Assembly (NCBI RefSeq): GCF_017744395.1
Contig: NZ_JAGIBI010000012.1
Coordinates: 7,766 to 71,765 of the forward strand
Reading direction: 5' to 3'
DNA length: 64,000 nucleotides
Source: Herbaspirillum sp.
GTDB taxonomy: Bacteria > Pseudomonadota > Gammaproteobacteria > Burkholderiales > Burkholderiaceae_D
Numbering within the stretch: the first letter of the stretch is position 1; each line of letters starts with the position of its first letter. Shown piece by piece: positions 2,036-10,270 of the stretch. The position numbers and the translations under genes were made by a program. Under the pieces are notes generated by a model that searched no databases, was not told the origin of the DNA, and saw only the letters and a list, made by a program, of their open reading frames with translations.

Positions 2036-2461
2036 TCACTCGCGGATCGCCGCCACCTCGGTCCGCTCCCCCTGCTGCACGATCCTCACCTGCTGGCCGG
2101 GCATGAATCCCTGCTCCGGCGTCGTAACGACGGTGGTGCCGCCGTTACTGGTCCTGACCGTCAGGTCGAACACCTGGCTGAGTTCCTGGTGCCTGCCGAC
2201 CTGGCTGCCGGCCGCCGCACCGGCGACGGCGCCGAGGATGGTCAGGGCGGTTTTCCCGTTGCCCTGCCCGAACTGGTGCCCCACCACGCCACCCGCCAGG
2301 CCGCCCACCGCGGCGCCCGCCAGGTTGGGCCGGTTCACGCTCACCAGGCGCGGCTGCACCGCCACGATCTTGCCGTAGGCGATATACACCGGCTCTTCTT
2401 TCCAACTGGCGCATCCGGCCAGCGATGAGGCGAGCAGGCATGCGGCAATGATGTTTTTCAT
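2036..2461 (-). CDS. glycine-zipper outer membrane lipoprotein (SlyB/Pcp-like)
   Basis: lipobox LAGC, GAAVGGLAGGVVG...LGAVAGAAAG zipper, GQQVRIV C-terminus. Confidence 0.85.
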   Translation of the reverse strand: MKNIIAACLLASSLAGCASWKEEPVYIAYGKIVAVQPRLVSVNRPNLAGAAVGGLAGGVVGHQFGQGNGKTALTILGAVAGAAAGSQVGRHQELSQVFDLTVRTSNGGTTVVTTPEQGFMPGQQVRIVQQGERTEVAAIRE

Positions 2462-2545
2462 GGAACTCCCGATCGGTTCGGACCGACGCTGATGTGAACG
2501 ATGGCCGGCGACGCGGGCCAGGCACAGCCCGCGCCGCCGCGGCCG

Positions 2546-3166
2546 TCAGAAGTTGTATTGCAGACCGAGGCCCAGCATGTAGGCATTGGTATCGGTCGCA
2601 TTGTCATTGGTCTTGGTGATCTTCGGATACCAATCCAGGTTCATGCGCAGATCCAGGTTGGAGGACAACTTGTAGGTGGCGCCGATGCCGAAGGTCGGAT
2701 GCAGTTGGTCGTCGGAGACATGGTAAGTGTCGTCATGCCCCGGCGCGCCGACGCGGTCGACCTTGGTATGCACGAAAGCGGCGCCGGCCTTGCCGGTCAG
2801 GGTAAACGCCTCGTTCAGGGGCAGGTAGCCGACGGCCGACAGCACCAGCGCGGTATTCTGGACCGTCAATTGGCTGACCTCGCCGCTGGTGCCGCGCACC
2901 AGGTCGTAGGTCGGTTTGCCGAAGTCGACGTAGGCCAGTTCGGCGCCGATGTGCTGGTTGAAACGATAGCCCAGCGCCAGCCCCAGGCCCAGCTTGTTGG
3001 TGCTGTCGCTGGTGATCGTGGTGGCGTGCATGGTGTTGGACGTATCGAGCGAGGTATGCGCCTGGCCGAGCGAGGCGGCGACATACAAGCCTTCGTTGGG
3101 CGCGGCCAGCGCCGATGCGGAAGTGGCGATGCAGGCGGCGGCCAGCAGGATGTGTGCAGTTTTCAT
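2546..3166 (-). CDS. OmpA-type 8-stranded outer membrane beta-barrel protein
   Basis: signal peptide, LGYRFN...AELAYVDFG, alternating beta pattern, terminal Phe (LQYNF). Confidence 0.85.
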   Translation of the reverse strand: MKTAHILLAAACIATSASALAAPNEGLYVAASLGQAHTSLDTSNTMHATTITSDSTNKLGLGLALGYRFNQHIGAELAYVDFGKPTYDLVRGTSGEVSQLTVQNTALVLSAVGYLPLNEAFTLTGKAGAAFVHTKVDRVGAPGHDDTYHVSDDQLHPTFGIGATYKLSSNLDLRMNLDWYPKITKTNDNATDTNAYMLGLGLQYNF

Positions 3167-3240
3167 TATCGAGATGCCATAGTAAGTTGAACGGGTATCC
3201 GGTTCGCGGTCAGGTTCCGGAATAGCGAACCTTGCGCGGG

Positions 3241-3278
3241 GACATCCTCCTATTCGTTGGCACCGTCAAAAAGCGGAA
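3241..3278 (-). promoter_or_regulatory. putative ECF promoter A: TTCCGCTTTTT-N11-CGAATAGGAGGATGTC
   Basis: near-identical to the motif at 6920-6957, same spacing; upstream of the OMP gene. Confidence 0.7.
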
Positions 3279-3317
3279 CAAAAAATCGCTTCTTTTTGCA
3301 AATTCCGCGCCAAGGCG

Positions 3318-3707
3318 TCATGGCGCCCGTCCGCATGCCTCGCGCAGCGACGCCACGAGCACCACATCGGGCTCGCGGTTGAGCGCATCGACCACGGCGC
3401 CGGCATTCCCGCCGGCCGGCCTCAGTTCGAACGCTCCATTCTGGTCCGGACCAAAGGCGATGCCGGTATCGAGACGGGCGAGCAGGCCGTTCAGCTTCCC
3501 CAACGGCGCATCTTCAGCGAAGGTCACAAGGATAGGATTGCAGGCCGCTGCACGCCCGCCCCCCGTCTCCGGCCGATACCAATAAGCCAGGGTGGCCAGC
3601 AGCCCGAGCAAGGCCGCCAGCGCCACCACGCACAGCATCGCCTGGGAAGAGAAAAACGATCCCGGCGGCTGCGGCCGGGAAGAAGAGAAAAAATCCTGTC
3701 GGGACAT
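3318..3707 (-). CDS. small single-TM protein whose periplasmic domain is homologous to the anti-sigma C-terminal domain
   Basis: ATG at 3707 with GGAG RBS; one TM segment; gap-free hand alignment 18/65 identical to the C-terminus of 7048-7707. Confidence 0.7.
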   Translation of the reverse strand: MSRQDFFSSSRPQPPGSFFSSQAMLCVVALAALLGLLATLAYWYRPETGGGRAAACNPILVTFAEDAPLGKLNGLLARLDTGIAFGPDQNGAFELRPAGGNAGAVVDALNREPDVVLVASLREACGRAP

Positions 3708-3742
3708 TGCGATGCTCCGGAATAAGTCGCCGTGACGCCGGT

Positions 3743-5089
3743 TTATTTGCCGGGCGCGGCCAGGCCCGGAATGGACTTGAACGACTCCAGCAGCAACTGC
3801 GCGGCCTTTTGCGGATCCTGGGCCGTGCCCAGCCCTTCGCCGGTCAGTTGCGCCAGGTCCAGCAGCGGGCGGCCGTATCCCGAACGGGACGCCACCGACA
3901 GCCATTTGTACGACTGCGCGTAATCCTGCCGCGCATACGCCAGCTCGCCCAGCAGGGTCTGAGCCGGCACATAACCGCGCAGCGCGGCGCGCTCATAGAA
4001 TTTGGCGGCCTGCCCCCGGTTCTTTTCGATGCCCTGCCCGCGATTGCCCGCCTCCAGCAACAGTCCGGCGATGCACAAGTCGCGGTCGGCGGCATTGCCC
4101 TGGCGGGCGCGCGCCATCGCCTGCGCCGCTTCGAAACGGTCCATGCGCGGCACGCCGATTTCCAGGCGGTACATCGTCTCGGCCCATTCGGCGACCGGAG
4201 TGCCGATGTAACGGTCGTCCAGTGGCAGGTCGGCGCGGTAGCTGGTCATGGCCAGGGAGCGTGCCGCGCCGCCGGCCTGCTGGGCCAGTTGCGTTTGCGG
4301 CAAGGCGCGCAGGCTCACCTTGCCCGCCTCCAGCCAGACCTGGCTGCGCAAATCGGAGTAATAACCTGGCGTCTGCTGATGGCCGGTCTGTGCGAAGACC
4401 TGGTCGGACGCGGCGCGGAAGGCATCTTCCAGCCCACGCGCGTGGGAATCGGTGAGTGCCGCCGACAAGGCGGCCGCATACGGGCCATTGCTTTTCTGCG
4501 GCCAGTCCAGCGCCTTGGTATATTCGGCGGTCGAATAAGCCACGAGCGTGCCGTCCCAAGCCTTGGGGACGATCCCCTTGTCGCCGCGTTCCAGCCCGCG
4601 GGTCTGGAACGGATTGTTGCGGCAAGCGTCGATGATGACCACCGAGATGCGCGGCTTGACCTGCGCCAGCATGCCCTTGAGGCGGTCCAGGTCGAAGCCG
4701 GATTTCTTCAGTTCTTCCTGCGAGCGCAGCGACACGTCGGTGCCCAGCAGCAGGCTCTTGCCCTCCAGCGCCGCGCCGTGTCCGGAAAAGAAGAACCAGG
4801 CGACGCCGATCTCGCGGCCCTGGATCTTGCGGATGAAATCGCCGACCGCCTTGTTCAGCCCGACGCCGTTGAGGTTGGTGCACAGTTCGCTGCGCGCCCC
4901 CAGCCGGCCGAAGGTGTCGTGCATGAGTTTGGCGTCGCGCCCGGCGTTGACCAGTTGCGCGGCATCCTTGTAATCGTTGTTGCCGATGGACAGGGCGACC
5001 TGCTCCATGCCCTGCGCCTGCGCCAGAAGCCAGCGCGGCATTCCCGCGCACAGAGCGCCGGCCCCCAGCAAGATGGCGCGGCGCTTCAT
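3743..5089 (-). CDS. caspase-like peptidase C14 with C-terminal Sel1-like repeats and probable Tat signal
   Basis: FFFSGHG and IIDACRNNPF His/Cys dyad; MKRRAILL N-terminus; helical repeats YERAALRGYVPAQTLLG and EGLGTAQDPQKAAQLL. Confidence 0.85.
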   Translation of the reverse strand: MKRRAILLGAGALCAGMPRWLLAQAQGMEQVALSIGNNDYKDAAQLVNAGRDAKLMHDTFGRLGARSELCTNLNGVGLNKAVGDFIRKIQGREIGVAWFFFSGHGAALEGKSLLLGTDVSLRSQEELKKSGFDLDRLKGMLAQVKPRISVVIIDACRNNPFQTRGLERGDKGIVPKAWDGTLVAYSTAEYTKALDWPQKSNGPYAAALSAALTDSHARGLEDAFRAASDQVFAQTGHQQTPGYYSDLRSQVWLEAGKVSLRALPQTQLAQQAGGAARSLAMTSYRADLPLDDRYIGTPVAEWAETMYRLEIGVPRMDRFEAAQAMARARQGNAADRDLCIAGLLLEAGNRGQGIEKNRGQAAKFYERAALRGYVPAQTLLGELAYARQDYAQSYKWLSVASRSGYGRPLLDLAQLTGEGLGTAQDPQKAAQLLLESFKSIPGLAAPGK

Positions 5090-5213
5090 CCGGCCCTCGC
5101 CGCGAACGATTCCAGCTTCATTGTTGTTTGCATTTTCCCTTGGAGCAGTGCCGCCGATTTTGGCAGCAGATTCTACCCGAATCCGCCGGCCCGCCCGCGC
5201 CGCCCCGGCGGTC

Positions 5214-5254
5214 AAAAAAACGGCGATGCCCTCCTGTCGAGCCGGGCATCGCCG
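5214..5254 (-). terminator. intrinsic terminator after the lipoprotein gene
   Basis: CGGCGATGCCC/GGGCATCGCCG stem followed by a U tract on the minus strand. Confidence 0.65.
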
Positions 5255-5264
5255 CCAGGAAAAA

Positions 5265-6008
5265 CTACTGCTGGGCCAGCACATTGCCCTTCTTGTCGCG
5301 CACCGCCACCTTGACGATTTCCGCCTTCACCTGGCGCGATGCCGTATCCGCTTCCTGCGCGAAGCAATAGACCACCAGCTCCAGCGCGTTATAGGTGCCG
5401 CGCAGATGCTCGATATTGCGCGCGACATCCTCGGGGACGTTGGAGAGATAACGGAACGCCTCGCCGTTGGTGAAGCTCAGGTGGTACGCGCTGTTGTCGT
5501 TGAAGTAACGGTACGCGCCGTTTTCCCACACCGAACTGTTGAGGGGGAAACCCTGCTTGTCGAAGTCGTACTTTTGCACCGGGTCGCTGAGCACGATCTT
5601 GAAGTAGCGGTTGGCGCGGGCGGCGGCGACCGAAGCGTCGATCTTCGGCTGCAGGGCCTTGAGCAGGTCGTTCTTCTGGAACTCGTCGCTGGAACGGGCA
5701 TAGTCGGCCGACACATTGCGGGCGATATCGCGGTAGTCGACCGGCATGCCCGCCAGCGCCAGGTAGGAATACATCAGCTGGTTGCCGCTTTCCAGCGCCT
5801 GGTAATTCTCCAGCGGCGTGGATTTGTCGGCCTTCTCGCGGGCATTGGCGATCACCGCCTGCTTGGCGGCTTCGGCCGCCTTGGCCGAGGTCGCATCCGC
5901 CAGTGTCGGCGCGGCGGGCGCATTCGCGGCAGGCGCCGCCTTGTCGTTGCAGCCGGCCAGGCCGGCGATGCTTGCTGCGACAGCCAGCGAATAAAGAATG
6001 TGGCGCAT
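5265..6008 (-). CDS. lipoprotein, DUF4852-like
   Basis: lipobox LAGC, Ala-rich linker, DEFQKNDLL...YDFDKQGFPL pattern recalled from this family (not searched). Confidence 0.7.
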   Translation of the reverse strand: MRHILYSLAVAASIAGLAGCNDKAAPAANAPAAPTLADATSAKAAEAAKQAVIANAREKADKSTPLENYQALESGNQLMYSYLALAGMPVDYRDIARNVSADYARSSDEFQKNDLLKALQPKIDASVAAARANRYFKIVLSDPVQKYDFDKQGFPLNSSVWENGAYRYFNDNSAYHLSFTNGEAFRYLSNVPEDVARNIEHLRGTYNALELVVYCFAQEADTASRQVKAEIVKVAVRDKKGNVLAQQ

Positions 6009-6077
6009 GGGGTTCTCCTTGATCCAGGTAATAAACATTGGGCGATGCATGGTGAAAGGCCGCGGCCGGATGGCCGA

Positions 6078-6878
6078 TCAGGCCCGCGACGACAGGTACT
6101 TGATGGCGCCGCGCCCCGCGAAGTACAGGCTGGCGAGCACGGAAAGGTAGGCGCCCAGGCCGAAGGAGACGGCGCGCAGCGCTTCCTTCATCATCCCCGA
6201 CGCCATTTCGGCCGCCATCGCCGCCGCCTGCCGGCCGCCGAACGCCAGTGCCGCGCCTTGCGCCTGCTTCAGGCCGTCCATGAGGCCGAAATAGCCGATC
6301 GCGCACACCGCCGCGATGAACAGCAACGGCAGCAGGTTGGCCAGGTGCGCCAGCGGGTTGCGCACGAAAAACGGCAGCAGGGGGCCGCACAGCGCCAGCA
6401 CCGCGAACAGGCCATAGGCGCCGCTGCCGCCGCCCGCTCCTCCCAGCGCATTCATGAAGCCGAGCGGGGAATTGAGCACGCCCAGCACTTTCCAGAACGA
6501 CAGCCCGCTGCTGTAGCCGGCCGCGATCTGCACGGTGATCGTGTTGAAGACGAACCAGCCGCACACCAGCGCGGCCATGCCGGCCAGCGTGCCCGCGCCG
6601 AAGCGCGCCACCATCTCCTTGCCCAGCGCCGCGCCCTTGTCCTTGGTCGCGCGCATCGCCGCCTCGGCCTGCTCGCGCGCCAACTGGCTTTCCGGCACGA
6701 CCTGCACCGAGGCCACGCGGCCGTCGGCGCCAAAGCCGACCTCCACCACCATGTTCACGCACGGCGCCACGTCGGATTTCCACATGCCTTCCAGCTCAAA
6801 AGGGAACTGCTGGCCGTCGATCGAGATCAGGCCGGTGCCTGCATTGGTGTCACGCACCACTTTGCCGCGCTTGTTCAT
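6078..6878 (-). CDS. membrane protein: N-terminal OB/cold-shock-like beta domain, helix, about 4 TM segments
   Basis: RGKVVRDTNAGTGLISIDGQQFPF beta-rich start; hydrophobic C-terminal half; GGAG RBS before ATG 6878. Confidence 0.7.
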   Translation of the reverse strand: MNKRGKVVRDTNAGTGLISIDGQQFPFELEGMWKSDVAPCVNMVVEVGFGADGRVASVQVVPESQLAREQAEAAMRATKDKGAALGKEMVARFGAGTLAGMAALVCGWFVFNTITVQIAAGYSSGLSFWKVLGVLNSPLGFMNALGGAGGGSGAYGLFAVLALCGPLLPFFVRNPLAHLANLLPLLFIAAVCAIGYFGLMDGLKQAQGAALAFGGRQAAAMAAEMASGMMKEALRAVSFGLGAYLSVLASLYFAGRGAIKYLSSRA

Positions 6879-6919
6879 ATGCACTCCGTCGTAGGGTTGG
6901 GCGCCCGGGATCGGACGCC

Positions 6920-6957
6920 GACACCCTCCTATTCGAAGCGACGGCGAAAAAGCGGAA
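6920..6957 (-). promoter_or_regulatory. putative ECF promoter B: TTCCGCTTTTT-N11-CGAATAGGAGGGTGTC
   Basis: matches 3241-3278; lies just downstream of a terminator, with an AT-rich upstream tract. Confidence 0.7.
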
Positions 6958-6988
6958 AGGAATTTTTAAATTTATTTTGTGACGCCGG

Positions 6989-7021
6989 AAAATAAAAAAC
7001 CCGACGCACCGACGTCGGGTT
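6989..7021 (-). terminator. intrinsic terminator of the sigma/anti-sigma operon
   Basis: AACCCGACG/CGTCGGGTT stem plus U tract on the minus strand. Confidence 0.7.
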
Positions 7022-7047
7022 CTGTTCTATTGGAATGATCCTGTCGA

Positions 7048-7707
7048 TCAGGGCCGATCCCTGCCGCGCAGATCCATCGCATGCACCTCCGTGACCAGCG
7101 ATGACGCTTGCAGGCGCTGTATCGCCTGCGCCAGCGATCCCTCGGTGACCACCACCTGGTAGGTGCCGTCGGCCGCCGGGCCGCTGCGGATGCGCAGGTG
7201 CATCTCCGCCAATTGCTCGCGCAGGCCGCCCAGCGCGGCATCGTCGCGGAACCTGACCAGCAGCACGCCCTCTTCTCCCTGCCCGGCGGGCTCCACCGCC
7301 CGATAGCCGTCGTCGGGAATGCCGTCGCGCTCGAACAGGTGGCGCGCCTGGAAAGCCGCCGTCACGCACAGCATGACCACCGCGGCCACCGCCCAGCGGC
7401 TGCCGTTGCTGGCCGGGGTCGACACCAGCCGGCGCCACCAGCCGGCCAGGCGGCCGCCGGCCGCGCCGCGCCGCGCCTGTTCGGCCTCCAGCGCCAGGCG
7501 GATCTGTTCGAACGACACCAGCGGCTTGCGCTCCTGCTCCAACCCTTCCCGCGCCAGGCGCACCAGTTCGCGCTCGGCATCGACTTCAGCCTGCAGTTCC
7601 GGATGGCGCGACAGCATGTCCTCCATCCAGGCGGCTTCCTCGGGGTCGAGCTTGTCGCAGGCGAACTGGAAGCAATGCGCCCGGAAACGGTTCAGGTCAT
7701 CGCTCAT
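7048..7707 (-). CDS. anti-sigma factor (cytoplasmic helical domain, TM, periplasmic domain)
   Basis: ATGA overlap with the ECF sigma stop; KLDPEEAAWMEDML N-terminal anti-sigma-like helix; single TM. Confidence 0.8.
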   Translation of the reverse strand: MSDDLNRFRAHCFQFACDKLDPEEAAWMEDMLSRHPELQAEVDAERELVRLAREGLEQERKPLVSFEQIRLALEAEQARRGAAGGRLAGWWRRLVSTPASNGSRWAVAAVVMLCVTAAFQARHLFERDGIPDDGYRAVEPAGQGEEGVLLVRFRDDAALGGLREQLAEMHLRIRSGPAADGTYQVVVTEGSLAQAIQRLQASSLVTEVHAMDLRGRDRP

Positions 7708-8396
7708 TTCATGCCTCCTTTGCCGAGACGCCCCAGCTTCGCGGTAATGCAGCCCTTCATCCGCTCCGCCGCCTTGCGTACCCACTTGCGCACCTGCTCG
7801 TCGTTAAGGTCCTGGTAACGCGGCGATTGCGCCGACAGGATGTCTTTCATCTGCTTGTAGTTCAACTCGTTTTCCAGCGACAGCTTCATCGCCAGGCGGT
7901 AATTCGGCCCCTTTCCCTTGGGCAGGCGCTCGATGCACTGGGCGATGGCCTGTTGCACCTGCTTGGCCTCCAGCTCTTCCTCCGGCCCCGGCAAATTGCA
8001 GGCGAAACCATCCAGGCCTGACAGTTCGCCTTGTTCGTCGTCATCCCTGCCATGCTTCTCGATATCGACGATCTTTTCCTGTTGGCTATAGAACCGGCGC
8101 AATTCGTCGATGGCGCACTGCTCGCCGATCTTCTTGGCCCAGGTCTTCACCGAGGCCAGCTTCGGATCGTAAGTATGCGCGGTCATGAAAATCTTGAGCC
8201 AGGCATTCTGCAACGCAGCCTGCGCCACATCTTCGTTGAACATGACCTGCGTGAGCACATGCCGTTCCAGGCCCTTCACCAGGTATTCATAGAACTCGCG
8301 CTGCGCCGCCTGCACGCCGCGGTCAGCCGGATTCCTGGACGCGAACAGCTTCAGCAGGCGCGCCAGTTCCTCGTTGTTATTCACGTTATCCGCCAC
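7704..8396 (-). CDS. ECF sigma factor (divergent)
   Basis: region 2 LQNAWLKIF...YDPKLASVKTW...AIDELRR; region 4 CIERLP...LNYKQMKDIL; GTG start at 8396 inferred. Confidence 0.85.
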   Translation of the reverse strand: MADNVNNNEELARLLKLFASRNPADRGVQAAQREFYEYLVKGLERHVLTQVMFNEDVAQAALQNAWLKIFMTAHTYDPKLASVKTWAKKIGEQCAIDELRRFYSQQEKIVDIEKHGRDDDEQGELSGLDGFACNLPGPEEELEAKQVQQAIAQCIERLPKGKGPNYRLAMKLSLENELNYKQMKDILSAQSPRYQDLNDEQVRKWVRKAAERMKGCITAKLGRLGKGGMK

Positions 8397-8398
8397 AG

Positions 8399-8842
8399 TC
8401 AGGCTCGGTGATTGTTTTCCCCAAGCGGGGATTGTAAGGCAGATTGCGCAGCAGCAGCGTCTTGCATCGCATCGACGAACAAATGCACCGCGTGCACCAG
8501 CGTATCGCGCGTGCGCACCAGGCAATAGCGCCAGGCGGCGGGATCGGGGAACCACAGCTCGATCAGGAAACTGACCTGGTTCTCGTTCATCACTCCCTTG
8601 ACCAATTTGAGCCGGCAGTTGATGTCGTTGAGCGCGATCAGCGCCTGCTGCGCTTGCGCCGGCGAAACCACCTGCCAGACGTTGGGCAGCAGCAGGCAGC
8701 CGAACTGGGCGTCGCCGGCATCCAGGCACAGCACATAGGAGAGGCCGTTGTGGGTAAAGACGATATCGTCGTCGCCATCCAGGGTCGCAGAAATGCCATC
8801 GGTACGGAATTGCTCCAGCAGAGCGGGAATATGGGGTGTCAT
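8399..8842 (-). CDS. YbjN/CesT-like chaperone-fold protein
   Basis: 147 aa, TLDGDDDIVF...ALNDINCRLKLVK pattern; first gene of the sigma operon. Confidence 0.65.
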   Translation of the reverse strand: MTPHIPALLEQFRTDGISATLDGDDDIVFTHNGLSYVLCLDAGDAQFGCLLLPNVWQVVSPAQAQQALIALNDINCRLKLVKGVMNENQVSFLIELWFPDPAAWRYCLVRTRDTLVHAVHLFVDAMQDAAAAQSALQSPLGENNHRA

Positions 8843-8895
8843 CGGAAACCTGTCGCGTTGGTGCGGCTGCCGCACCATGCGGCAGCTCACCATTG

Positions 8896-8925
8896 CCTAT
8901 TCGAAGCGAACAGCGATTTCCGGAC
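8896..8925 (-). promoter_or_regulatory. putative ECF promoter C (autoregulatory): GTCCGG...CGAATAGG
   Basis: TCCG-N17-CGAATAGG as in A and B; shares CCTATTCGAAGCGA (plus strand) with B. Confidence 0.62.
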
Positions 8926-8933
8926 CGCTAAAT

Positions 8934-10013
8934 TCAATATTTCGTATCGCCCGCCGAAAAAAACGGTCCCGACGGCCGATTTCCCCATTCCAGTTCCGAT
9001 TCCGCCACGCCCGGCACGCCCTGCCTGATCGCCGTCGAATAGTCATCCCCCGCCCGCACCGCCAGGGCGCGCTGCGTGATGCGGCCGGCGGCCTTGAGTT
9101 GCTCGAAGGAATAACCCGGCACCAGGCCGCCGTGGTCGTAGGCATATCCGGCGAAATATCCCGACAGCAGCAGCCGGTAGTCCAGCGGCAGCAGCGGCGA
9201 CAGCCGGCGCGCCAGCCCGAACACGATGGTGGTGCAATTGCTGGTGAGCGTGTTGTAGAAACGGGGAGCGGCCTGCAGCTGGGCGGCCCGCTCCAGGTAG
9301 CCGAGGAACACCTTGCGCAACTGTTCGGGACGCAGCCGCAGCCGGTACAAATAGACGTCTTCGCCACGCGCATTGGTGCGGGTGCGCAGGATGTCGTTCT
9401 CGTCGGCCGCCACGATGACCGTCTCGAAGCGGCGGAAGAAACCGCCGATGGCGGAAAAGTTCTCGCCTTTCTCGCGCCGGATTTCCAGCGAGAACACCAG
9501 GCGCCGGCCGTCGTCGAAGCCGAACGAGACCAGCGTATGCGCGATCGCCGGCCCCATCCAGTAAGACAGGACCAGGTCGGCCGAGGCCAGGCGCGCCAGG
9601 TCGTAACGGCGCGTTTCCCACCGCGCGTCGTAATCGGTCTCGCTGCGCCAGGCGAAGTTGCGCACATTGGCCAGCGTCACCTGGCCGCCCTGCACCTGCG
9701 CCTCCAGCAGGCGCGCGACATCGTCGGCCCATACCCGCCCATGCGACGGCCGGATGGTATGCCACCACGCCAGCAGCGCCACGGCAGCCGACAGGAACGC
9801 CGCCAGCCACCAGAACCCGCCGGCGCCGGCCATCCCCGCCAGCGCAACCGATGCCGCCAGCGCCAGCGACGACCAGGCGGCTATCGCCGCATTGCGCGCC
9901 CACGGCGGCGCCGGTAACTGGAACCACAGCGCGCACGCGCCCCAGGCGGCCAGGCCGGCCAGCGGCAGCAGCAACGGCCAGCGCAGCCACAATAAGGAAG
10001 TCAGAACCGCCAT
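8934..10013 (-). CDS. DUF4105 / Lnb N-terminal-like membrane protein
   Basis: N-terminal TMs, NVRNFAWR, AIAHTLVSFGF, FYNTLTSNCTT. Confidence 0.8.
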   Translation of the reverse strand: MAVLTSLLWLRWPLLLPLAGLAAWGACALWFQLPAPPWARNAAIAAWSSLALAASVALAGMAGAGGFWWLAAFLSAAVALLAWWHTIRPSHGRVWADDVARLLEAQVQGGQVTLANVRNFAWRSETDYDARWETRRYDLARLASADLVLSYWMGPAIAHTLVSFGFDDGRRLVFSLEIRREKGENFSAIGGFFRRFETVIVAADENDILRTRTNARGEDVYLYRLRLRPEQLRKVFLGYLERAAQLQAAPRFYNTLTSNCTTIVFGLARRLSPLLPLDYRLLLSGYFAGYAYDHGGLVPGYSFEQLKAAGRITQRALAVRAGDDYSTAIRQGVPGVAESELEWGNRPSGPFFSAGDTKY

Positions 10014-10270
10014 CTGGAAATCACGCCGCAAAGAAAGGAAAGGCGCGCCGGATTCCCGAGTTTCCGGCGCCAAGCGGCATTGTAGCCGCCTGGCTCATCC
10101 GTGTTGCGGCGGATATATCCATGGCAGGGATCGCCCGGGGCCGGCAACGTCTCCGGGCTGTTTTGCATCGGCCATCCGGAATAACGATATGACAAATCAT
10201 TCCTTGGCCGGCTTGGGCGTTCGCGCTAGCGTCTCGGAACATTCTTCCCAACAACGATGAGCGAGACACC

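Follow-up and report, generated by a model that had tools for sequence, protein, structure and literature searches.

Why would a bacterium encode, directly behind the gene of an exported caspase-like protease, a free-standing and membrane-anchored relative of the sensor domain of an anti-sigma factor of the same locus? The question is raised by a stretch of 64,000 nt from Herbaspirillum sp. (GCF_017744395.1, contig NZ_JAGIBI010000012.1, positions 7,766 to 71,765), hereafter the window, in whose coordinates all positions are given. On its minus strand, a gene for a protein of 129 residues, here named the mini protein (3318-3707), follows that of a 448-residue caspase-like peptidase (3743-5089), close to the genes of a sigma factor of the extracytoplasmic function (ECF) class (7704-8396) and of its single-pass anti-sigma factor of 219 residues (7048-7707). 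The mini gene belongs to a conserved module that comprises the ECF sigma factor, the domain-bearing anti-sigma factor, the exported caspase-Sel1 protein, the mini protein and, except in the window genome, a SulP-like membrane protein. The answer that we favor is that the periplasmic domains of the mini protein and the anti-sigma factor may share a periplasmic partner in a decoy and feedback mechanism involving the caspase, and to this reading, taken as a whole, we assign a probability of about 35%.

The relationship between the two domains was evaluated at the sequence, profile and structure levels. The peptides quoted for both proteins in an earlier note on this DNA are exact translations, and the gapless alignment that it described was reproduced, with 18 identities in 65 positions (15/52, 19/73), starting at residue 57 of the mini protein and residue 147 of the anti-sigma factor and extending to the final residue of both. 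Its best ungapped BLOSUM62 score, 67, compares with 24.9±4.2 (maximum 43) for shuffled sequences, none of 500 being as high, and BLASTP reports 31% identity over 52 residues, with an E-value of 6e-6 for the pair. When profiles of eight mini homologs and 11 anti-sigma homologs were compared with hhalign, a probability of 95.8% (E 7e-9) was obtained, larger domain alignments giving 98.2% for minis versus close anti-sigma factors and 99.1% for minis versus the broad family. Moreover, a profile made from mini homologs only retrieves the window's own anti-sigma gene in the genome. AlphaFold2 predicts a β-α-β-β-α-β topology for both domains, with every element at the same 90-residue offset, this likeness being judged from the secondary-structure register of single-chain models. 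Profile and model comparisons thus concur in presenting related folds (hhalign 96-99%, shared predicted topology), where unrelated ones would have undone the earlier proposal. A similarity due to chance or composition, or a 129-residue reading frame that is no gene, might be considered for short, GC-rich, Ala/Leu-rich proteins neither of which has a Pfam match above cut-off, but the outcome of the 500 shuffles, the profile-profile probabilities, the existence of at least 24 homologs with invariant residues and a predicted local distance difference test (pLDDT) score of ~90 for the domain make it extremely improbable.

Judging from its sequence, the 129-residue gene appears to encode a real, conserved inner-membrane protein. 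Its ATG, preceded by GGAG, is found 35 nt 3' of the caspase stop codon, so that the gene does sit directly behind that of the protease, as had been described. The protein is predicted to consist of a cytoplasmic tail of ~22 residues with an FFSSQA motif, one transmembrane helix (H17-44 in the model) and a domain at residues ~57-121, and its AlphaFold2 model reaches a pLDDT of 80 overall and of ~90 in the domain. Both sequence and model agree with the earlier description of a transmembrane helix plus domain that lacks the N-terminal domain of the anti-sigma factor. Its N-terminus would be placed in the cytoplasm and its C-terminal domain in the periplasm, since the homologous domain follows the single transmembrane helix of an anti-sigma factor whose N-terminal domain is necessarily cytoplasmic, and since some relatives carry a four-cysteine zinc ribbon at their N-terminus while a cysteine pair brackets the domain. 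This pair, Cys56 and Cys125 in the window, is invariant in 24 family members and has no counterpart in the domain of the window anti-sigma factor. In this fold, the beginning of strand 1 comes close to the end of strand 4, and both residues are located at that point, which suggests a disulfide between them.

Regarding the anti-sigma factor, its ATG overlaps the stop codon of the sigma gene (ATGA), and its predicted layout includes an N-terminal helical domain, a transmembrane helix, a disordered linker and the C-terminal periplasmic β-α-β-β-α-β domain (residues ~147-211), the AlphaFold2 model (pLDDT 76 overall, ~85 in the domain) showing four N-terminal helices ahead of the transmembrane one. 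Two NCBIfam anti-sigma models match the protein with E-values of 5e-7 (NF052375) and 1e-4, both below their cut-offs. With its helical domain, one transmembrane helix and coupling to a sigma gene, it can probably be placed among the class I (ASD/ZAS-type) transmembrane anti-sigma factors, a class from which the mini protein falls out, having no cytoplasmic sigma-binding domain. The sigma factor itself matches TIGR02937 (sigma70-ECF; E 1.2e-12, above cut-off) and Pfam Sigma70_r2 (E 6.8e-6) in searches made with the residues encoded by 7704-8321, its GTG start being placed at 8396 because the gene calls of relatives comprise 230 residues. As a side observation, in three proteins of 430-449 residues (P0033, P0036, P0043) a sigma factor, an anti-sigma domain, a transmembrane helix and the C-terminal domain are called as one protein, which could reflect a real sigma/anti-sigma fusion or read-through at the ATGA overlap. 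The Arg-rich C-terminal tail of the window anti-sigma factor (D-L-R-x-R-D) was also considered as a cleavage site for an Arg-specific orthocaspase; R214 and R216 are invariant in 11 close anti-sigma factors, but the tail was dropped as a general feature because more distant caspase-adjacent anti-sigma factors do not have it.

The caspase matches Pfam Peptidase_C14 (PF00656) with an E-value of 3e-28 over profile positions 2-231 of 233, and Sel1 with an E-value of 1e-7, its Sel1 repeats also matching Sel1-repeat structures in the PDB. The His (SGHG) and Cys (DACRN) motifs of the C14 dyad can be recognized by eye, so that the protein is a candidate active peptidase of this family. Its N-terminus, MKRRAILLGAGAL, resembles a twin-arginine (Tat) signal, which would mean that the caspase is exported in folded form. 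A defense-system interpretation of the gene was set aside, PADLOC giving just a weak generic 'caspase' match (E 3.7e-5).

A domain-only profile was then searched against 1.84 billion representative proteins, which yielded a family of 1083 clusters (50% identity) at E≤1e-3. Its members mostly have 200-240 residues and carry the domain at their C-terminus, mostly in zf-HC2 anti-sigma factors, the zf-HC2 finger being detected in 16 of 56 sampled members. Among these same 56, the Pfam family PF22148 (Fervidolysin N-terminal prodomain) is matched by 18 at E≤0.01, in the C-terminal domain and with a best E-value of 8.8e-12; relatives P0028 and P0065 score 45.7 and 21.3 bits, respectively. The β-α-β-β-α-β topology of the PF22148 prodomain is also that of the AlphaFold2 models (domain pLDDT ~85-93). 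In a Foldseek comparison with the PDB, the best match of the anti-sigma domain is the prosegment of subtilisin BPN' (1spb_P; E 9e-3, probability 1.00, template modeling score 0.68, root mean square deviation 2.6 Å), and subtilisin propeptides occupy ranks 1, 7, 25, 41 and 49, with template modeling scores up to 0.72. For the mini domain, the subtilisin propeptide 1scj_B ranks second (probability 0.97), others appearing at ranks 13 and 35. Sequence and models therefore suggest that both are small ferredoxin-like domains of the fervidolysin/subtilisin-propeptide kind, in the neighborhood of PF22148. They share with the PF22148/I9 propeptides (1spb_P, 1scj_B, 2z58_B) a β-α-β-β-α-β fold of ~70 residues, but differ from them in having no attached or adjacent subtilase and in being anchored to the membrane, either at the C-terminus of an anti-sigma factor or free-standing. 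I9 propeptides are inhibitors of subtilases. Separately, P0028, an anti-sigma-like protein of 263 residues with the strongest PF22148 match of the family, was observed to contain two propeptide-like domains in tandem.

Whether domains of this kind keep company with caspases beyond the window was explored in 400 sampled genomes of the same order, in which matches to the domain profile and to PF00656 were compared. Outside the window genome, 43 domain copies were found, nearly all in frames of anti-sigma size, and a PF00656 match is found no more than 3 kb from 10 of them, in seven cases within ~400 nt and on the same strand. Chance alone would yield some 0.04 cases, given the density of C14 genes (~230 in ~1.6 Gb); no p-value is attached to these counts, since related genomes do not provide independent observations. 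The 10 caspase-adjacent copies are spread over nine GTDB families, which makes chance linkage unlikely, and the corresponding anti-sigma factors occupy scattered positions in the domain tree. No caspase was seen near the domain copies of five further genomes, which were checked in full. Recurrent adjacency in nine families thus supports a link between domains of this type and C14 caspases.

The phylogeny bears on the age of the paralogy. A tree built from 113 domain sequences has a branch with support 99/83 that separates the copies with the cysteine pair, that is, the minis, from all C-terminal domains of anti-sigma factors; the anti-sigma factors found beside minis in the various loci belong to at least three sub-clades. 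As sister to the mini clade, the tree places the domain of a true anti-sigma factor (G357) that has the cysteine pair and is encoded directly 5' of a caspase-Sel1 gene. Among the top 150 matches of the domain profile, 17 clusters (50% identity) are minis. The two domains of the window are paralogs, as implied in the earlier note when it called the domain duplicated, but a recent duplication at this locus is rejected, because the minis group together and separately from every anti-sigma domain, and their single clade, faced with partners that span at least three sub-clades, makes the paralogy old.

The genomic company of the mini gene, studied in about a dozen loci, is well conserved. The order observed in the window (YbjN-like, sigma, anti-sigma, membrane protein, DUF4852, caspase-Sel1, mini) coincides with that of Herbaspirillum lusitanum, H. 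autotrophicum and several metagenome contigs; a second order (sigma, anti-sigma, caspase ... mini) occurs in locus L011 and in a metagenome-assembled genome of Polaromonas, and a third (sigma, anti-sigma, mini, SulP-like, caspase) in G568, where the mini gene directly follows that of the anti-sigma factor and the cysteine pair is present in both proteins. A C14 gene accompanies the mini in every locus long enough to judge, and an anti-sigma factor with the same domain does so in all judgeable loci but L020 (Comamonadaceae bacterium AAW), the only one without an anti-sigma factor of this type within 9 kb. In this locus, a gene for an insertion sequence (IS)-type transposase (rve; L020:5173-6159) is located just 5' of the caspase-mini-SulP genes.

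Such co-inheritance could also be explained if both domains paired with each other, edge to edge as ferredoxin-like and ACT domains often do, the mini protein acting as a co-sensor or protector in the way that RseB shields RseA; in relatives, it might in addition link the anti-sigma factor with the SulP-like protein. This explanation agrees with the presence of homologous domains on one and the same side of a shared membrane, with their co-occurrence in all judgeable loci except the IS-disrupted L020, and with the G568 arrangement, in which both proteins have the cysteine pair. On the contrary, the partner anti-sigma factors fall in at least three sub-clades and the minis in one, a pattern that a common third partner fits at least as well. 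Direct pairing is judged unlikely.

Turning to the reading that we favor, the domains of the anti-sigma factor and of the mini protein would have in common one periplasmic partner that recognizes them, the caspase-Sel1 protein being the most likely candidate. The propeptide-like domain of the anti-sigma factor may be the regulated element on the periplasmic side, where the caspase-Sel1 protein would bind or cut the anti-sigma factor in a site-1 step that precedes intramembrane cleavage. The mini protein, which would be produced from the same sigma-dependent operon as the caspase, would display a look-alike domain at the surface of the membrane and so compete for the protease or hold it, and the outcome could be feedback on the amount of sigma factor released, given this joint production with the protease. 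In favor of this mechanism we count the homology of the domains, with the same fold in register and a propeptide-like character; the co-inheritance of mini, caspase and anti-sigma factor, together with the adjacency of domain and caspase in 10 of 43 cases and the G357 arrangement; a promoter motif, TCCG-N17-CGAATAGG, located before the operon of caspase and mini and conserved in relatives; the domain of the window mini protein, which is still 77% identical to that of its nearest relative despite the loss of the SulP-like gene; and the precedent of DdvA (PMC11506125). A role of the mini protein as decoy or inhibitor is plausible, a strict I9-style inhibitor being a sub-case of the same mechanism.

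Several observations weigh against it. The anti-sigma factor of the window (P0002) matches PF22148 at residues 146-205 with only 13.8 bits (E 0.076), the gathering cut-off being 21 bits, and the mini protein (P0001) has no match, nor do four other members of its family at E≤0.1; membership in PF22148 is then a matter of transitive homology only, because relatives pass the cut-off and both window proteins stay below it. Foldseek found no match in the PDB at E≤0.001 for either protein, and ACT, RRM, S6 and HMA domains score almost level with the propeptides, the predicted fold being of the generic and very common ferredoxin-like type. A comparison of the domain profile with all PDB chains produced no meaningful match either (best E 0.087, an Ohr protein). 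The test for a propeptide/I9-like fold that the earlier note proposed therefore obtains a weakly positive answer, based on the propeptides retrieved by Foldseek and on the PF22148 matches of relatives, and tempered by the generic nature of the fold and the scores just given. In addition, neither the genes at 2036-10073 nor the related loci include an S8 subtilase, the protease there being a C14 one. To our knowledge, inhibition by propeptides is a property described for subtilases and not for C14 peptidases, and no precedent was found in the literature for such a domain as inhibitor of a C14 peptidase. Around three quarters of the domain-carrying anti-sigma copies have no nearby caspase, so that the domain is not exclusively a caspase partner. 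The assignment of TCCG-N17-CGAATAGG as promoter of the window's sigma factor is deduced from position alone. Finally, in 11 of 11 other loci a SulP-like membrane protein gene is found immediately 3' of the mini gene, the stop codon of one and the start of the other overlapping in most of them (~4-19 nt in L010, L012, L013, L011 and L052).

This last pairing, which is maintained in three gene orders and in no fewer than three families, introduces a serious rival, in which the mini protein would serve the SulP-like protein as an accessory subunit, its transmembrane helix and linker docking on the permease and its domain gating or sensing. The likeness to the anti-sigma factor would then reflect common descent of a versatile periplasmic module, and the gene of the window would be a leftover after loss of the permease. 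Transporters of the SulP/SLC26 type have a full Sulfate_transp domain and a C-terminal STAS domain; the SulP-like proteins have ~450 residues and a partial match to PF00916 (Sulfate_transp), at residues 306-382 with an E-value of 4e-8 in L010, below cut-off in L011 and absent in L020, and show no STAS match. No homolog of them was found in the whole window genome (99.84% complete), and where relatives carry the SulP-like gene, the window has ~150 nt (3167-3317) with a copy of the promoter motif. The window genome has lost the gene, which is why this neighbor is invisible from the window sequence. Compared with its nearest relative, the window mini protein retains 77% identity and both cysteines in the periplasmic domain, while its transmembrane/linker region is 48% identical, with ~15 gap columns in the alignment, and has lost ~14 residues; among relatives with a SulP-like gene, this region is about as conserved as the domain (~72% versus ~70%).

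The position of the SulP-like gene, directly 3' of the mini in all 11 other loci and in three gene orders, mostly with overlapping codons, and the decay of the transmembrane/linker region in the sole lineage without that gene speak for the permease-subunit explanation. On the contrary, the mini protein of the window remains intact after the loss, with both cysteines and 77% domain identity, the pair of mini and SulP-like protein is never seen apart from the locus of caspase and sigma factor, and a permease subunit has no obvious need to be a paralog of the anti-sigma sensor of the same locus. We consider this rival possible, albeit on the unlikely side. The preservation of the domain after loss of the SulP-like gene suggests that it has a use independent of the SulP-like protein, and the whole pattern fits a transmembrane/linker region in contact with the SulP-like protein and a domain with a further use, the evidence being weak and coming from a single lineage.

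The minus strand is organized as three units, each behind one exact copy of TCCG-N17-CGAATAGG, for which the window contains three exact matches when 0.30 are expected, a number reached by none of 100 shuffles; the motif is also present at the corresponding places of five related loci. Copy A (8896-8924) precedes the operon of the YbjN-like protein, sigma factor and anti-sigma factor, and its relative position is kept in L010, L013, L014, L015 and L017. Copy B (6928-6956) precedes the operon formed by a membrane protein, DUF4852, caspase and mini, and is kept before the homologous membrane-protein gene in L013, L014, L015 and L017. Copy C (3249-3277) lies 3' of the mini gene and 5' of genes for an OmpA-like beta-barrel (2546-3166) and a glycine-zipper lipoprotein (2036-2461), both assigned by Pfam, homologs of which adjoin the module in L012. 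The sigma factor would thus drive its own operon, that of caspase and mini, and the pair of porin and lipoprotein, the latter two genes being probable regulon members. With this arrangement, the mini protein might be a plain output of the regulon, an envelope protein with its own ligand and without feedback on sigma factor or protease: its gene closes an operon that follows the promoter motif and encodes other envelope proteins as well. This explanation leaves the paralogy with the sensor domain, and its retention in several gene orders, without a cause, and is regarded as quite improbable.

The remaining features of these units are likewise on the minus strand. The YbjN-like small protein encoded by the first gene of the sigma operon (8399-8893) shows a weak match to Pfam YbjN (E 0.006, below cut-off) and has a homolog at the equivalent position in L010, L012, L014, L015 and L017. 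A strong intrinsic-terminator-like hairpin, with a 12-bp stem and a T run (6996-7023), lies 3' of the anti-sigma gene. The second operon starts with a polytopic membrane protein of 268 residues (6078-6884), with no Pfam or NCBIfam match, whose homologs in L010, L012-L015 and L017 (64-88% identity) occupy the equivalent position, followed by a DUF4852 lipoprotein-like protein (5265-6050; Pfam DUF4852, E 3.8e-7), also conserved in position among relatives.

Other features of these loci were observed around the module. Its upstream position is occupied in the window by a gene with an Lnb_N domain (8934-10073), and in three related loci (L013:1-2652, L014:1-2900, L015:1-2841) a conserved divergent trio is found 5' of the module, which encodes a double-zinc-ribbon protein of ~330-370 residues, a ~230-residue protein and a ~400-residue protein. 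Several relatives have co-oriented genes for a ~300-residue, a ~525-residue and a GDPD protein behind a further copy of the promoter motif. In H. lusitanum, an extra copy (L010:9847-9874) is situated before a second YbjN-like gene, which lies 3' of the SulP-like gene; genes for a transposase and for an integrase of phage type appear a few kb beyond. In L011 (4884-7881), a zinc-ribbon membrane protein of 476 residues is followed by an apparent second copy split in two genes, of 128 and 299 residues, which by eye resemble its N- and C-terminal parts.

Comparison with known systems helps to delimit what is particular to this module. In the sigma E systems RseA/RseB and MucA/MucB, the genes of the sigma and anti-sigma factors are accompanied by that of an accessory protein of the periplasm, which acts on the periplasmic part of the anti-sigma factor and controls its cleavage; RseB is a soluble protein without sequence relationship to RseA, and DegS, a serine protease, makes the site-1 cut. 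The mini protein is, on the contrary, membrane-anchored and a paralog of the sensor domain, so that RseB and MucB are functional analogies only. The closest described parallel is provided by DdvS/DdvA of Myxococcus xanthus, an ECF sigma factor held by a single-pass anti-sigma factor that is fused to a periplasmic TPR-CHAT caspase-like module, whose protease has been proposed, without proof, to carry out the site-1 step before RseP cleavage (PMC11506125). Both systems combine an ECF sigma factor, a single-pass anti-sigma factor and a caspase-fold protease with TPR-type repeats. They diverge in that the TPR-CHAT module is fused in DdvA, whereas in the window a separate, exported C14-Sel1 protein is encoded three genes downstream, which leaves the window protein outside the DdvA type; in that the window anti-sigma factor has only a small domain of ~70 residues, with an extra free-standing paralog, which is not so in DdvA; and in that the window regulon encodes envelope proteins, while that of DdvS/DdvA involves cyclic-oligonucleotide-based antiphage signaling (CBASS) and clustered regularly interspaced short palindromic repeats (CRISPR) systems. 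The group ECF54 has CHAT neighbors and is described as having cytoplasmic proteases and no anti-sigma factor (PMC8999054). ECF54 and other ECF groups with CHAT or subtilase neighbors thus share with the window a caspase-family protease conserved near the sigma gene, but the window combines a classical membrane anti-sigma factor with an exported C14-Sel1 protein. In the literature, no description was found of anti-sigma periplasmic domains of PF22148 or ferredoxin-like type, of an orthocaspase with an anti-sigma factor, or of this module. The module can be regarded as a form of ECF sigma/anti-sigma signaling with an envelope protease.

Many ECF anti-sigma factors possess uncharacterized periplasmic domains. 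In its boldest form, the mechanism proposed here would have the periplasmic C14 protease controlled in trans by membrane-anchored propeptide-like domains. The anti-sigma copy would be both substrate and switch, its cleavage releasing the ECF sigma factor, and the disulfide-stapled mini protein would set the threshold as a decoy or inhibitor of non-productive type. We find this version rather unlikely; if true, it would be the first case in which an enzyme of the caspase family is regulated in the manner of a propeptide, and the DdvA idea would exist in split and tunable form in several families of the order. If the mini protein were merely a permease subunit, the finding would reduce to a new family of small proteins. 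A large class of domains with a propeptide-like fold occurs recurrently beside caspase-like proteases, with one lineage adding a free-standing paralog. With three proteins, three promoters and one catalytic cysteine, the system offers a concrete handle on a possible site-1 role of bacterial caspase homologs in envelope signaling.

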